Below the pieces are notes generated by a model. The model worked only from the letters and a program-made list of their open reading frames with translations. It did no database searches and was not told the DNA's origin. A program made the position numbers and the translations under genes. A DNA stretch of 64,000 nucleotides, from assembly GCF_011045215.1 (NCBI RefSeq), contig NZ_CP049201.1; one strand, written 5' to 3'. Positions 10,676 through 56,709 of the stretch are shown one piece after another; position 1 is the stretch's first letter, and every line of letters begins with the position of its first letter. This DNA is from Escherichia coli. Lineage in GTDB: Bacteria > Pseudomonadota > Gammaproteobacteria > Enterobacterales > Enterobacteriaceae.

Positions 10676-10689
10676 TGCATTGAATGATA

Positions 10690-10718
10690 AAAATGGCGCA
10701 AATACAGCGCCATTTTTA
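10690..10718 (+). terminator. intrinsic terminator after yagU
   Basis: Stem AAAATGGCGC / GCGCCATTTT with loop AAATACA, followed by a T-run, 15 nt after the yagU stop. Confidence 0.55.
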
Positions 10719-10865
10719 TAGGTTAAAAACATTGCTTTTTATATTCTGATGCAGATAGCCAGTGAGTATATCGTGCCACTTCAGGATGATGTAGATCCGA
10801 AGAACGCTACAGAAGAGAGGCATTGTTGCTGGCAAATACAAGAAGTATCGGGTTTTGTTGCCCCT

Positions 10866-10899
10866 AAAAACGAAGCCCCGCTATTACAGTAGGCGGGGC
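10866..10899 (-). terminator. intrinsic terminator after ykgJ
   Basis: Hairpin GCCCCGC(11-nt loop)GCGGGGC at 10875-10899, followed on the minus strand by UUCGUUUUU; about 19 nt downstream of the ykgJ stop. Confidence 0.5.
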
Positions 10900-11247: not shown

Positions 11248-11559
11248 AATTCACCAGTACAGCTATAAATCGTAAAGAGAACAGCGGTACATCGTATGTA
11301 AGAACGTACCGCGGTTGGCTGGTGTACTTTCGATAGTGTGAGTATTGAATGATTTCCAGCCGTTACCGATTTTACGTACTAATTCGTGAATAAACCACTC
11401 GTTAGCAGGCAGCCTGATACCTTTCCGTGTCTCCTGAACACTATGGTGTGCATATGGGAAAGCCCATCGTTACAGGTGATATTGACGATCGCTTCCACAT
11501 CATTTAAACGATTTTTGAGTCTCTGAGGTGGAATTCTTCCCTCGACCGATGGATAAGTA

Positions 11560-12270: not shown

Positions 12271-13882
12271 GAATTTCTCCTGAAGCGCTGACTTCGCCAA
12301 ACCAGCCGTTATCATCTACCGTACGCAGCGAAATGGCGTTATCCATTGGAATCGAAAATTTGACTGTGGTCTTATCCATCTGCCCCACTTCGCCAGAGAT
12401 ATCAGTCCACGGTGTGGTCAGCCACAGCGCATCGGTCATATCCCGCCAGCTATCATCGCACCCGGCATCGTAGGTTTTTGTAGCTCCGTTGCGAGTAATA
12501 AAGGAAAGCGTCGCCGGGAACGGTACTTTCGCCTTACCGTCATCGGAGCTGAAGACACAATAGGAGCGCCCGCCAATCACCTGCGCGGGTCCGGTCACCT
12601 TGATCAGCACTTCGTCGGCAGCTGTTTTACCGCTGGTGGTTACGATATAGCCGAAATCGAGTGCCGACTCGCCGCTGCCGACATATCCCTCCCGCGACGG
12701 TGTCTGAGTATATTCATCGGAGATAATACTGATGCTGAAATCACGGGGTTTGATAAGCAGCGTGTTGGAGGTAGAAAATTCATACCAGCCAGACTCCGGT
12801 GATGTGGTGTTCTGAAAGCGAAAGTTGAATAGATCTTTGGTGTTGATATCGCTGATCCCGAGGTTCACCATCTGCTTAAAGAAGTTGCTCGAGAAGAAAA
12901 CATAGATCGAGTCTGCGCTCTTCATCTCGTTGAAGGTGTAGTAATAGGCAGTATTGCTCACCGGTTTCCATGAACTGCCATTCAGACTGAACTGCATATC
13001 GTACGCCCCGACGGCCGAGGCTAATGATGAGTTGGCGATCGCCGGGAATATATGGATTGAGATGTTGCTGAGTCCGTTTGTTTGCAGGGTGTAGTTGACC
13101 ATCTTACAACTTAATCCTGAAAGGCTGCCGATGGTTTGCGTCCGGCAGTCGGCGTTCCCTTCGCCCAGAGTCGGTACTCCGTCGCTGTTGATAAATACCT
13201 CCGCCAGCGAGTGGGTATTTATTAACCGCAGATTTGCTGCTTTCGTATGGGTGACATTGCGAACATACCAGTTTCCGGAGGCCTGATCCTTACAACGCGC
13301 GCCGCTGCTGGCGTCATAGTTCACAGAGGTCTGACAGGTATTGATGGTCATTGTAAAGCTGCTGCCGACGGGCATTTGTTGCATATACTGGTAAAACGCG
13401 TCTGACAACATGCCGTGCATCCATTTCGCGCCGCCGCTGGTCACCGTCGCGCCATAAAATCCACTGGCGTCGGTGGTTTGCGGCAGGATAAGACTGGTGG
13501 TCATATTACACCCTGCGTACCAGTTGATGCAGCGTAAGCCAGTTAAAGGAGATGAAACCGGCGAATTTTCCAGCCACATATCAAACTTCCAGTTGGTATA
13601 GAGGCCGGTGTTGTAACCGTTATCAATGTAGCCGAGGCTTTGTTGATAAATGGTTCCTGAGCCAGTGTATTTTAAACCGGTCCAGCGGTTGGCACCGGTC
13701 AGGCGCGGATCCAGCGCCCCGCCAGGCGTGACGAAAAAGTTGTCGTCTGAGTTGTTTTCGACAAACACAAACTCGCTTGCCGGTGCATCCGCCCAGGTTG
13801 TTTTGCTCACTGCCGCTCTGAGCGCAGTTACTGGCCAGATTAGCGCGAAAATTATCATCGTTATTAGTAGGTTAACTCTCAT
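12239..13882 (-). CDS. ecpD: E. coli common pilus tip adhesin / polymerised minor subunit EcpD
   Basis: 547 aa with signal peptide; position within the ecp operon. Confidence 0.85.
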
Positions 13883-16397
13883 TCTCTTCTCCTGTCTGCG
13901 TCACCGCCGCCCACGATGAGAGGCCGCTGCAGACCACATCACCGACCCAGACGGCACCGCGCGCCTGGTTGAGTTCCAGAGCCACTTCGCAGGTTTTATT
14001 GCCACTGTAGCGAAAATCGATAGTGGGGTATTTCTTATCCACGTCCATGACAAACTCGCCGTTTTCATCGGTTCGGGTTCGGCCGATATGGTTGTTAATC
14101 CGTGCGTTAGCCAGCAGTGTGCCGTCTTCCGCACGGATACGACCGGAGACGGTAACCATCTGCTTCACCTCTGGCTCAATGACAGCGACATTGCCTGGAT
14201 AGAGAGTCAGATGACTTTTGCGGCCGCTGACGATATCGTAACTGTCGAGTGAGTTTTTGCTGTTCTGTAACTCCACCTCATATCTTCCATAGGGAGAGAG
14301 CGGGAGATAGTTACGCTTGCCGTGAAGCGGGAAAATCCGCCCGTTGATTTTGGCGCTGATCTGACCGTCGTCCTCCAGCCCGGTGTTGAATATCACCCCA
14401 GCGTTGCCATCAGTCCGCCCGCTGGCAGCAATGTTTTTACCCTGCCAGCCGACGCTGCCATTGGCGGTTAAATTGGTATTGACGTAGCCGTCCGCCGCGC
14501 TATTGACGTTCAGCGTTCCGCTGGCGTAGCGAGCGTCGAACTGTGCATACGCCCCACCACTGAGAGTTTTGTCATCACCTGTATCGCCGGAGATGGCTCG
14601 TGACAGATTGGCACCAACAGTGCGAATGGTCCCTTCATCAAACTGCTTGCATGCTGACAGGTTTGCCATGGTGTAGCCGTTTTGATGAGTCATCCCTGCG
14701 CTAAACCAGTTGCCCAGTGGTAGCGAGAGATCGAGAGCGATATATTTCCCTGTATTGGCGTTGCTGTCGCCGTTGTTATAGCGCTGAATACCGGCCCGCA
14801 GGCCAAGCGAACCAAAGGGACCGCTGTAGACATTTTGATAGTAATCTGCCGTGTAATAATGGCTGTTGTAACGGCGGTCATCATTGTAGCTGATGCTGAA
14901 TGTGCCCAGCTTCGACCACAGTGAGTTCAGGTTGAGTGTGCCGCCGATTGCACGGTTGTCGGCATCGCTACGTCGCAATTGATTGCCAATGCGGGTTTTT
15001 TCCTGGTTAACCCACAGCGAACTAAAGCCTCCCGGTAGAGTGGCGCTGATGCTGGCGATGTTGCTCCATGAGCTGTCACTGGCCAGCATATTTTGCAGGT
15101 TAACGTTGATCGCTCCCCCAAGCGGCAGCGTCAGACGGGTTTCACCCACCGCCTGATTATCGTATCCATATCCCGTTGCCGCCCAGCTAAGCGTACTCAG
15201 TGAGCCGGAGGTCGAGGCACCTGCCAGCCAACTCTCTTTAGCTGGTCGCGTCTTTTTCCCGTTTTCCGACCAGCGATCCATATGAAAGCTACCGCCCCAT
15301 ATCTGCCACGCCAGTGGTGCACCGACGCCGCGCCCCCGGCTAAACAGCTTATTGACCCGCTGGGTGCGTTTGCTGATCACGCGACCGTTAACGATCACCT
15401 CAACTTCCACATCGTAAATACCGTACGGTAGACCCCGGGTATCCACTTCATGATTGCCCATAGTGAAGTTCTGAACGCTTAGTAGCCGCCCATCACGGGT
15501 GAGATGTACTTCACCCGCCGCCGGTAAAAAGGCGATCACTGGCGTGGCTGACTGGCTGCTGTCGAAGATGGTGGAGCTGGCCTGGTTTCCCCAGGAAAGG
15601 CCGTAAATCTTCCCTGCTGAAATGGCGGTCATCGGCCCTAAGGACTGCAAGTTCCAGGTGTCGAGCATTCCACCGGCAAATCGGTGACCGGCAAAATCGC
15701 GTTCATACATCGCTTTATATAATTCACTGTCCTGTTGACCGCTACCGATCCCGTACAGCGAGCCGTCGAGCACCACATGATGTTCGCGCAGTGCAGTAAC
15801 GTTATTCAGCGACAGATAGCTGGATGTGTTGCTCCCGCCGTTACGCAACTGGTTGTTATAGATGCCGAAGTTATAGCTCAGATTACTGCTGAGGGTGTTA
15901 ACACTGGACTGCCCGATGTCTTCGCTACGTGAGCGTAGTACAGTGCCCAGCGCTTCGCGCTTGACCACCAGCTGCAGCAGCAGTTGGCGCAAGCTGAGAT
16001 CCAGCTGCGCGTTGTCAGTCAGGGGGATGGTAAGGGCCTCATTGAACGGGGCGTTCGCCAGAGCCATCAGCTGCTGTCGAGTTTGTTCGCTGACACTGGC
16101 GTTATCTTCACTCTCTTCCAGCTGTATTTTCCGGATGCGTAGCTGTCCATCATCCAGCCAGATAAAAGCGCTGCCGATTCGCTGATCGTCCTGGCGACCC
16201 TGGCTACCGGCGAGATGAATATAAAGCGGGACGCTCATGCCGTCCTGGAGCGCCTGACTGAAGGCCTGCGGAATAATCACCCCACCTATTTGCTGCGCAC
16301 TTATGTCAGCAGCGCTGGCATCGGGCTGAACGAACAAAAAGACCATGCCGAAGGCAAACTGGGCTTTCAGTCCTGGGGAGAACAGTCGTAAAGGCAT
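13872..16397 (-). CDS. ecpC: E. coli common pilus outer membrane usher EcpC
   Basis: 841 aa, signal peptide, usher-sized beta-rich protein between ecpB and ecpD. Confidence 0.9.
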
Positions 16398-16422
16398 TGT
16401 CGTTATCCATCTGCACAGCTAT

Positions 16423-17091
16423 CTATTTCACGGGAATGAACTTATCACCCTGCCAAAGTGCAACCCGTCCTTTGTTATCCGCAGTGTCCACGCGGGTAAA
16501 ACGACGCGACTTGCCCGGCATCAGGTAGTAATTCTCTTTACACTCCTTACCGTTGGCGGCTTTCAGGCAAGGGCCGTAGGCGAGGATCCGCAGCGTCGCA
16601 TTTCCTGTATTTGTCAGGGAGCCGTTGGCGTACTGAAAGTGGTAGTTCGCCTGGCGAGGGGCGACGACCAGAATGGTGCCGATGCGGGCGGAAGCAGTGG
16701 CCACAGCGCTGCGGTTGGCATTATCGCGCTGCGCATCACTGAGGGCCTGATCAAACCAGACAATGCGGTAGTAGCGCTCTTTTTCATCTGCGGGTCCCTT
16801 ATAGAAGAAGCGGATCACTTCGCTGGCTTGGGCGGGTAGCAGCAAGCTGGCGGGAGTGAGTAGCAACTCATCCGGCTTGTCCATTGAGATAACCTGCCCG
16901 TCGTCAAGCGGTGAAGAGAGCCGTTCGAGACGGATATTGATAAGGCGACCACTGTCGGTACTGTTTTTGATCGTTTTGCTCAGCGTGCTGCTGTCACTGT
17001 TCATAAACGATGATATATCGCCGACATCCAGCGCCTGGGCCGGAGATATTCCGGAAAACAGCAGAGCGAGAGGCAGAAGGTGCTTTTTCAT
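16423..17091 (-). CDS. ecpB: E. coli common pilus periplasmic chaperone EcpB
   Basis: 222 aa with signal peptide ([20 protein letters not shown]); paralog of EcpE. Confidence 0.85.
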
Positions 17092-17112
17092 AACAATTCC
17101 GTCCAGGAATAA

Positions 17113-17133
17113 AGCAGGGGGGCTACCCCTGCT
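17113..17133 (-). terminator. stem-loop between ecpA and ecpB (possible partial terminator / attenuator)
   Basis: Inverted repeat AGCAGGGG / CCCCTGCT with loop GGCTA; on the minus strand it is followed by UUAUUCC. Lies in the 57-nt ecpA-ecpB gap. Confidence 0.4.
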
Positions 17134-17148
17134 GGTACATCAGAGAGA

Positions 17149-17736
17149 TTAACTGGTCCAGGTCGCGTCGAACTGTACGCTAACGTCGCCGCTCCAGATG
17201 CCTTCCGGTAGAGTGCTGTAGTCGGTTACTGCGGTGGTACCATTGGTGGTGCCGCTGATGATGGTGAAGGTGAAACCATCCTGTGCAGTGGTACGATTGC
17301 TGGCATTGTAACCGTTAGCCAGCGGGCTAAGGTTGCCGCCCAGTACGCCGTTGGCGGTATCGATCATCACGGTATCGCCAGTTTTTTCGACTGCCGCGCC
17401 GTTATAATCCACGCCCACATTCAGTGTGGAACCTGAGGTATCCAACTGGGTTAATGTGTTGGTGATAAGACGTGAGGTCAGTTTAAAGGCGGTAGCCGTT
17501 GAGTCACCTTCGATAGCCACGTCAAATAGACCTTTCTGTGAGTTAAAACCTTTAATGCCTTCGGCATACTGGAACGCCAGGCTACCGAGTGGCGTCACAA
17601 CCAGCTTACTGGTGGTGTCTTTTTTGGCTGTTGCCGACCAGGTCGCTACAGCCTGAGCTGTTACGTCAGCAGCCTGCGCCACACCCATGCCGGTAAACAC
17701 CGTTACCAGAGCTATTGCCAGAACCTTTTTTTTCAT
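17149..17736 (-). CDS. ecpA: E. coli common pilus major subunit EcpA
   Basis: 195 aa, signal peptide [22 protein letters not shown], Thr/Ser-rich pilin-like sequence. Confidence 0.9.
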
Positions 17737-17810
17737 TGCATTTCTTCCCGAGTTGAATTGAGGACGTGATGTCCCAGTGAGTCATTTTTTAAAACTAACT
17801 TGCCTGGAGT

Positions 17811-19170
<1,360 letters not shown>

Positions 19171-56255: not shown

Positions 56256-56709
56256 TGCCGGATGCGGCGTGAACGCCTTATCCGGCCTACAAGTGGCGCA
56301 AGAATTTGTAGGCCTGATAAGCGTAGCGCATCAGGCATTTGTCACCATTGCCTGATGCGGCGTGAACGCCTTATCCGGCCTACGAGTGGCGCGAGAATTT
56401 GTAGGCCTGATAAGCGTAGCGCATCAGGCATTTGTCACCATTGCCGGATGCGGCGTGAACGCCTTATCCGGCCTACGAGTGGCACGAGAATTTGTAGGCC
56501 TGATAAGCGTAGCGCATCAGGCATTTGTCACCATTGCCGGATGCGGCGTGAACGCCTTATCCGGCCTACGAGTGGCACGAGAATTTGTAGGCCTGATAAG
56601 CGTAGCGCATCAGGCATTTGTCACCATTGCCGGATGCGGCGTGAACGCCTTATCCGGCCTACGAGTGGCACGAGAATTTGTAGGCCTGATAAGCGTAGCG
56701 CATCAGGCA
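56256..56709. repeat. tandem REP (BIME-type) array, about 5 units of about 93 bp
   Basis: Repeating unit TGCCGGATGCGGCGTGAACGCCTTATCCGGCCTAC-spacer-TAGGCCTGATAAGCGTAGCGCATCAGGCA-TTTGTCACCAT, with unit starts at about 56256, 56349, 56442, 56536 and 56628; fills the yahG-yahI gap. Confidence 0.85.

Follow-up and report, generated by a model that had tools for sequence, protein, structure and literature searches.

Internal partial terminators placed after pilin genes have been textbook knowledge since the pap operon. In pap, which encodes the P pilus of uropathogenic E. coli, partial termination between papA and papH lowers the level of the downstream transcripts, and RNase E cleavage of the papBA RNA gives a stable papA mRNA that lies between a 5′ stem-loop and the 3′ terminator, whose hairpin shields the 3′ end of this mRNA. 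Internal terminators set subunit stoichiometry in other operons too, for example in those of the ABC importers of cellulolytic Clostridia (PMC9045158). The set of 'protective RNA structures' compiled by Dar and Sorek (2018) was built so that operons with an intergenic intrinsic-terminator motif were deliberately excluded.

The locus described here is the ecp (mat/yag) operon of the common pilus. As in pap, the gene order is regulator, major pilin, stem-loop, assembly genes (ecpR, ecpA, hairpin, ecpB–ecpC). The sequence-only reading had proposed a possible partial terminator between ecpA and ecpB, and the proposal is supported, at the level of sequence, by the hairpin-plus-U architecture, positional conservation, covariation, T enrichment and read-through. 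The hairpin is probably an intrinsic (Rho-independent) terminator whose U-tract is imperfect, and it would combine partial termination with protection of the ecpA 3′ end.

The hairpin in the ecpA–ecpB gap

Positions are those of the window, the whole 64,000-nt stretch of DNA that was analysed, unless another sequence is named. All genes of the operon discussed here lie on the minus strand. In the RefSeq annotation of identical DNA, ecpR (matA), the regulator and first gene of the operon, occupies 17811..18401; ecpA (matB/yagZ), the major pilin gene, 17149..17736; and ecpB, the chaperone gene and the first gene past the hairpin, 16423..17091. Next comes ecpC (16397..13872), followed in the K-12 annotation by ecpD and ecpE. 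Of 5,426 complete E. coli genomes, about 4,950 carry this same DNA under the annotation ecpA/ecpB. K-12 MG1655 matches the window exactly over the 86 nt that surround the gap, and its RefSeq annotation has no feature within the ecpA–ecpB gap. A window position equals the NC_000913.3 position minus 292,935, and the hairpin is thus at 310048–310068 on the minus strand of NC_000913.3.

The gap is 57 nt long and reads, on the mRNA strand, UAA-ucucucugauguacc-AGCAGGGG-UAGCC-CCCCUGCU-UUAUUCCUGGACGGAAUUGUU-AUG. A stem-loop had been claimed at 17113–17133 in this gap, and both the sequence and the fold bear out these exact coordinates (17133..17113 on the minus strand, the coding strand of ecpR-ecpA-ecpB-ecpC). 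The description of a GC-rich 8-bp stem was also accurate: the 5′ arm AGCAGGGG (17133–17126) and the 3′ arm CCCCUGCU (17120–17113) form eight pairs, six G-C and two A-U, around the 5-nt loop UAGCC (17125–17121). The ecpA stop codon UAA lies at 17151–17149 and the stem begins 15 nt downstream of it, while the ecpB start at 17091 is 21 nt downstream of the stem. The U-rich stretch is there as described. It comprises the tail UUAUUCCUGG (17112–17103), which was identified from the terminator scan, the sequence and the T enrichment in orthologous gaps. Counted from the last G-C pair, the tract is UUUAUUCC, with five U in eight and then CC, and is short, interrupted and not canonical. The upstream A-tract is absent from the E. 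coli hairpin. Sequence inspection found no T-tract on the plus strand, and a bidirectional terminator in E. coli was rejected on that ground.

The hairpin has a folding energy of −14.4 kcal/mol (z = −3.18), with an equally good fold in 1 of 200 shuffles, and is present in both the MFE and the centroid folds of the 71-nt and the 251-nt contexts. A separate terminator scan also lists 17133..17113. The element AGCAGGGG-UAGCC-CCCCUGCU was annotated, from the fold, the covariance-model match and the covariation, as an RNA hairpin acting as a terminator or as a 3′-protective stem-loop. An antiterminator or an alternative pairing with the 3′ coding region of ecpA was sought in the 251-nt fold and none was found. 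An RNase III site was rejected, as the stem is too short.

Terminator-like sites are rare in this DNA. A scan of both strands of the window for G-C-closed contiguous stems of ≤ −12 kcal/mol followed by at least five T in 8 nt returned eight sites, against a mean of 0.7 in 20 dinucleotide shuffles. Five orthologous hairpins were used to build a covariance model, which gave one strong match in the window, at 17100–17138 on the minus strand (35.8 bits). The hairpin sequence itself occurs at a median of one place per E. coli genome. A REP/BIME-type repeat was rejected on the basis of this single placement and the single strong model match. No Rfam family was found at the hairpin site. Elsewhere in the window, unrelated Rfam matches at the gathering score were an IS009 RNA at 10681–10879 on the plus strand (189 bits) and four tandem copies of the REP-derived naRNA4 at 56311–56659 on the minus strand.

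Conservation of the stem and of the T-tract

Through alignment of EcpA, 47 loci were collected from one-genome-per-species contigs, ecpA and ecpB were placed by tblastn, and the gaps between them were extracted. The loci cover Escherichia, Klebsiella, Raoultella, Enterobacter, Pantoea, Citrobacter, Phytobacter, Kosakonia, Pluralibacter, Cedecea, Serratia, Symbiopectobacterium, Morganella, Tatumella and Erwinia. Orthologous hairpins were picked by a contiguous-stem scan. Nearly all gaps contain a G-C hairpin followed by T's, 5–31 nt past the ecpA stop. Under a strict criterion (core ≤ −9 kcal/mol and at least four T in eight), hairpin and T-tract were found together in 33 of 44 ecpA–ecpB gaps, from about a dozen genera. 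The expectation from the density of such same-strand sites elsewhere in the loci (0.138 per kb) is about 0.5, and the 33 loci share ancestry and do not represent 33 independent events.

The stem is kept at this place even where its sequence is not. Unrelated stems were found in Serratia marcescens and Symbiopectobacterium (GGGCGGG/CCCGCC), Morganella (GGGCAG/CUGCCC), Kosakonia (GGAGCG/CGCUCC and GCAGGAGCGA/UCGCUCCUGC), Erwinia oleae (GCGCUGCC/GGCAGCG) and locus L036 (GGGUGGGCA/UGCUCACCC). These replacements give support for the pairing that is independent of any alignment. Loop sequences vary freely (GCCA, UCCU, GCU, UUUU, GAUU, GGCCU and others) and range from 3 to 7 nt in length. Column entropy is 0–0.97 bit in the stem, compared with 1.5–1.9 bit per column in the upstream flank.

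Covariation was scored on a covariance-model alignment filtered to the sense strand, with spurious matches removed and N padding. Across 32 distinct sense-strand sequences, 99.6% of the cells in this model-fitted alignment are standard pairs, and in seven of the eight pairs both sides have changed, in 20 cells overall. Covariation scored 0.324, compared with 0.142 ± 0.015 in shuffles, and was reached by none of 500; since the alignment is fitted to the model structure and the sequences are phylogenetically related, these shuffle statistics overstate the significance. Slid controls scored 0.04–0.14. The stem alignment holds 11 G-U cells and 1 A-C cell, indicating that the pairing is selected on the mRNA strand and not in an antisense RNA or in duplex DNA.

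These data bear on whether the repeat acts as DNA, either as a palindrome serving as a protein operator or as a target for recombination or insertion, or is a chance inverted repeat. The repeat is perfect in the DNA, and insertions of about 200 nt lie inside it in Klebsiella indica (L004) and Serratia grimesii (L028). However, the loop varies from 3 to 7 nt and the half-sites are replaced by unrelated sequence with pairing kept, the excess of G-U over A-C cells points to RNA, and the T-tract lies on one side only. Chance is excluded by the recurrence among the gaps, by the eight window sites against 0.7 and by the covariation score that no shuffle reached. A DNA-level or chance origin can thus be given hardly any credence.

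The exceptions to the pattern are few. In the two insertion loci the gap is about 200–256 nt long (L004:3586–3845 and L028:3586–3804) and the insertion splits or duplicates the hairpin. In L004 a hairpin-like copy stands on each side of the insert, which itself holds a REP-like palindrome. From their sequences, L004 and L028 seem to have acquired their inserts independently, each within this hairpin. Two Tatumella loci (L039:3586–3617 and L040:3586–3620) have gaps of 28–31 nt with neither hairpin nor T-tract, and are the only clear loss of the hairpin among intact loci; L047 is a degraded copy. Within E. coli, variants differ mostly by loop indels. A few O157:H7 genomes (H36–H38) are one base off the 86-nt query, and the one that was aligned (H36/L049, E. 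coli O157:H7 ECP19-198) has a T-to-A change in the 3′ arm at window position 17116 (CCCCAGC), which breaks a mid-stem A-U pair. As judged from its sequence, this variant is a natural weakened hairpin.

The T-tract is conserved together with the stem. Among 36 distinct orthologous gaps, the frequency of T at positions +1 to +6 after the last G-C pair was 89%, 94%, 75%, 58%, 81% and 67%. Over the 8 nt after the stem T made up 65%, against 28–33% in the rest of the gap. Some orthologs have weaker tails, among them L027 (CUUCCCCG), L042 (CUUCGCGC) and L045 (UUUCCAAA). On sequence grounds, this conserved tract is the mark that would distinguish a terminator from a mere nuclease-blocking hairpin.

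The fold of the context also contains a small second hairpin, AUUCC-UGGAC-GGAAU (17096..17110, minus strand), which we regard as tentative. The U-tract supplies its 5′ arm, and the 3′ arm consists of the Shine-Dalgarno-like GGAA motif found 5 nt before the ecpB AUG. In the folding model it could form solely in read-through RNA, where it could damp translation of ecpB. At the same place, gaps of Klebsiella and Raoultella carry a similar 4-bp hairpin, UUCA-CGGAY-UGAA, with an apparent C-G to A-U compensatory change that was judged by eye, uncounted and without statistics.

Translational control of ecpB, in which the main and the small hairpin would together limit access to a weak ecpB ribosome-binding site, draws on this pairing of the U-tract with the GGAA motif and on its Klebsiella and Raoultella counterpart. 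However, the ribosome-binding site lies outside the main hairpin, and the position of this hairpin tracks the ecpA stop (5–31 nt among the loci) and not the ecpB start (16 to >70 nt). Serratia and Morganella keep both hairpin and T-tract despite a different downstream sequence and spacing. The small hairpin is weak and is absent in some loci, for example L002. We consider control of ecpB translation very improbable as the role of the conserved element.

Read-through, 3′ ends and proposed partial termination

In EPEC strains, all six ecp genes were reported to be transcribed, as judged by end-point RT-PCR (PMC5962669). When the amplicons of that study were mapped to the window, they fell at 17754..17094 and 17144..16364. 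Each of the two includes the hairpin, and the second continues through ecpB into the beginning of ecpC. The possibility that ecpB has its own promoter in the gap was rejected, as the scan found no promoter-like site between ecpA and ecpB at its threshold. Pilus assembly depends on EcpB, EcpC, EcpD and EcpE. Termination at the hairpin must therefore be incomplete, because RT-PCR amplicons cross it, no promoter-like site precedes ecpB, and the products of the downstream genes are needed. The gene ecpB is the first gene that is reached by read-through only.

Term-seq data for K-12 (Adams et al. 2021) contain no minus-strand 3′ end at 310020–310069. Planktonic K-12 does not express the mat (ecp) operon (PMC8516962), and this blank is therefore uninformative and not negative.

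The same Term-seq data contain 3′ ends at two other places near the operon. The top match of the terminator scan is a plus-strand hairpin, GTTGGCGGTATCGATCATCACGGTATCGCCAGT, followed by TTTTTT, which lies inside ecpA in antisense orientation (17350–17388). Its position agrees with that of a Term-seq 3′ end mapped to MG1655 310323 on the plus strand, listed as 'antisense to ecpA' and found in at least two conditions (Adams et al. 2021), indicating that an antisense RNA ends inside ecpA in K-12. The other is a minus-strand hairpin, GCGGTACGTTCTTACATACGATGTACCGC followed by TGTTCTCT, at 11284–11312 in the ecpE–ykgJ gap, about 250 nt downstream of ecpE. Its 3′ end at about 11277–11278 matches a very abundant 'orphan' Term-seq end at MG1655 304212/304213 (minus strand) with about 88,000–99,000 reads. 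Because the ecp operon is silent in K-12, this suggests an independently transcribed small RNA or a UTR fragment, and not only the end of the operon.

A processed ecpA mRNA that is selectively stabilised, and whose stability is regulated, has been reported, in the form in which Lehti et al. (2013) are cited in PMC5962669. This bears on a reading in which the hairpin is a decay barrier only. No termination would take place; an endonuclease would cut downstream, 3′–5′ trimming would stop at the hairpin, and a stable ecpA mRNA would result, as in malE–malF or with elements of the 'protective structure' type. The stability of the hairpin (−14.4 kcal/mol), the imperfect U-tract in E. coli and, in the version relayed by PMC5962669, the processed ecpA mRNA of regulated stability all fit such a barrier, and differential decay with protective 3′ hairpins is common in E. 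coli operons. However, a U-tract is not required for a pure exonuclease block, and T is strongly and specifically enriched over the 6 nt past the stem, in genera whose stems and downstream sequence are unrelated, and the hairpin is not a dispersed repeat of the REP type. A decay barrier is moreover compatible with termination, and the alternative stands only if termination is negligible. We consider it unlikely that the hairpin acts as a decay barrier only. Our preference for a terminator over a decay-blocking hairpin is drawn from sequence and rests mainly on the conserved T-tract.

The element has the sequence features of an intrinsic terminator, namely a G-C-rich hairpin whose 8-bp stem and 5-nt loop fall within the usual limits of about 5–14 bp and 3–8 nt, a U-tract of weak form, a place on the mRNA strand after a stop codon, and compensatory change. 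With a pap-type module it shares the place of the stem-loop, immediately behind the major pilin gene, and read-through to the assembly genes. Terminators with short, interrupted U-tracts are expected to act with partial efficiency. From these features we infer that termination occurs and that the hairpin has a stabilising role, with an efficiency of the ecp terminator that is expected to be low to intermediate, given the short, interrupted U-tract and the lack of an upstream A-tract.

Partial termination at the ecp hairpin would proceed as follows. RNAP from the promoter upstream of ecpR would transcribe the ecpA stop codon and, 15 nt later, the hairpin. The 8-bp G-C-rich stem would fold with the polymerase positioned over the weak rU:dA hybrid (UUUAUUCC). 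A fraction of the complexes would release their RNA about 7–9 nt past the stem, and the rest would proceed into ecpB, ecpC, ecpD and ecpE. The predicted 3′ ends are at about 17104–17108, equivalent to about 310039–310043 on the minus strand of NC_000913.3. Now at the 3′ terminus of the short RNA, the hairpin would block 3′–5′ exonucleases, giving a longer-lived ecpA message, which is also reported to undergo processing from ecpR. The outcome would be a level of pilin mRNA far above that of the chaperone, usher and adhesin mRNAs, matching the stoichiometry of the pilus.

The hairpin might instead be a regulated attenuator and not a fixed leak. Modulation would then act on how much transcription reads through into ecpBCDE, or on how stable the hairpin-ended ecpA mRNA is. 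The modulator could be the ribosome that terminates 15 nt before the stem, the alternative pairing of the U-tract with GGAAU, or an EcpR/MatA-dependent factor. If true, attenuation would account for the reported MatA-dependent stabilisation of the pilin mRNA and for strains that transcribe ecp without making pili. We regard regulated attenuation as quite improbable.

A fixed partial terminator would offer a sequence-level account of how one promoter can supply major pilin in large excess over the chaperone, the usher and the tip adhesin of the most widespread E. coli pilus, by a design that is conserved across the ecp-carrying Enterobacterales. For assays that follow ecpA expression only, it would mean that a signal from ecpA does not necessarily reflect how far the assembly genes are expressed.

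Comparison with known systems

The element is ordinary: internal partial terminators after pilin genes are already well known, and the finding changes no concept. The literature that was searched describes no terminator, stem-loop or Northern blot for ecpA–ecpB; the primary ecp/mat transcript papers lay outside this search, and a prior description is possible.

That fimbrial operons can carry a leaky terminator after the pilin gene, as the sequence-only reading had stated, is documented for pap. Besides the gene order, ecp shares with pap a processed, stabilised pilin mRNA, as reported for ecp/mat in the work cited by PMC5962669. Unlike pap, ECP/Mat belongs to the 'alternate' chaperone-usher systems, and the sequence of EcpA (Pfam PF16449) shows no relation to that of PapA. 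The ecp hairpin is likewise unrelated in sequence to that of pap, and is known here from sequence, with a 3′ end that is predicted. A possible counterpart of the papA 5′ stem-loop, proposed tentatively by analogy, is a small hairpin in the ecpR–ecpA gap, GGGAC-AUCAC-GUCCU (17761..17775, minus strand), about 25 nt upstream of the ecpA AUG. Hairpins of this GGGAC...GUCC(C) type recur in the ecpR–ecpA gaps of Klebsiella, Pantoea, Phytobacter and Citrobacter loci, and the Raoultella counterpart is GGGCG/GGGCC...GCC. The ecpR–ecpA gap as a whole folds no better than its shuffles.

Like canonical E. coli intrinsic terminators, the ecp hairpin has a G-C-rich stem of 7–8 bp, a loop of 4–5 nt and a T-rich tail directly after the stem, soon after a stop codon on the coding strand. 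Unlike them, it lies inside an operon whose downstream genes are needed, and its U-tract, UUUAUUCC, is short and interrupted.

Like the REP element of malE–malF and the 'protective RNA structures' that Dar and Sorek (2018) compiled, the ecp element is a stable hairpin at the 3′ boundary of an upstream cistron that is, or for ecp is predicted to be, the more abundant one. Those elements are without a U-tract, whereas the ecp hairpin has one and is unique in the genome.

The internal terminators of Clostridia (PMC9045158) resemble that of ecp in placing a stem-loop terminator after a gene whose product is needed in excess. The organisms and gene families there differ from those considered here, and only the principle is common to both.
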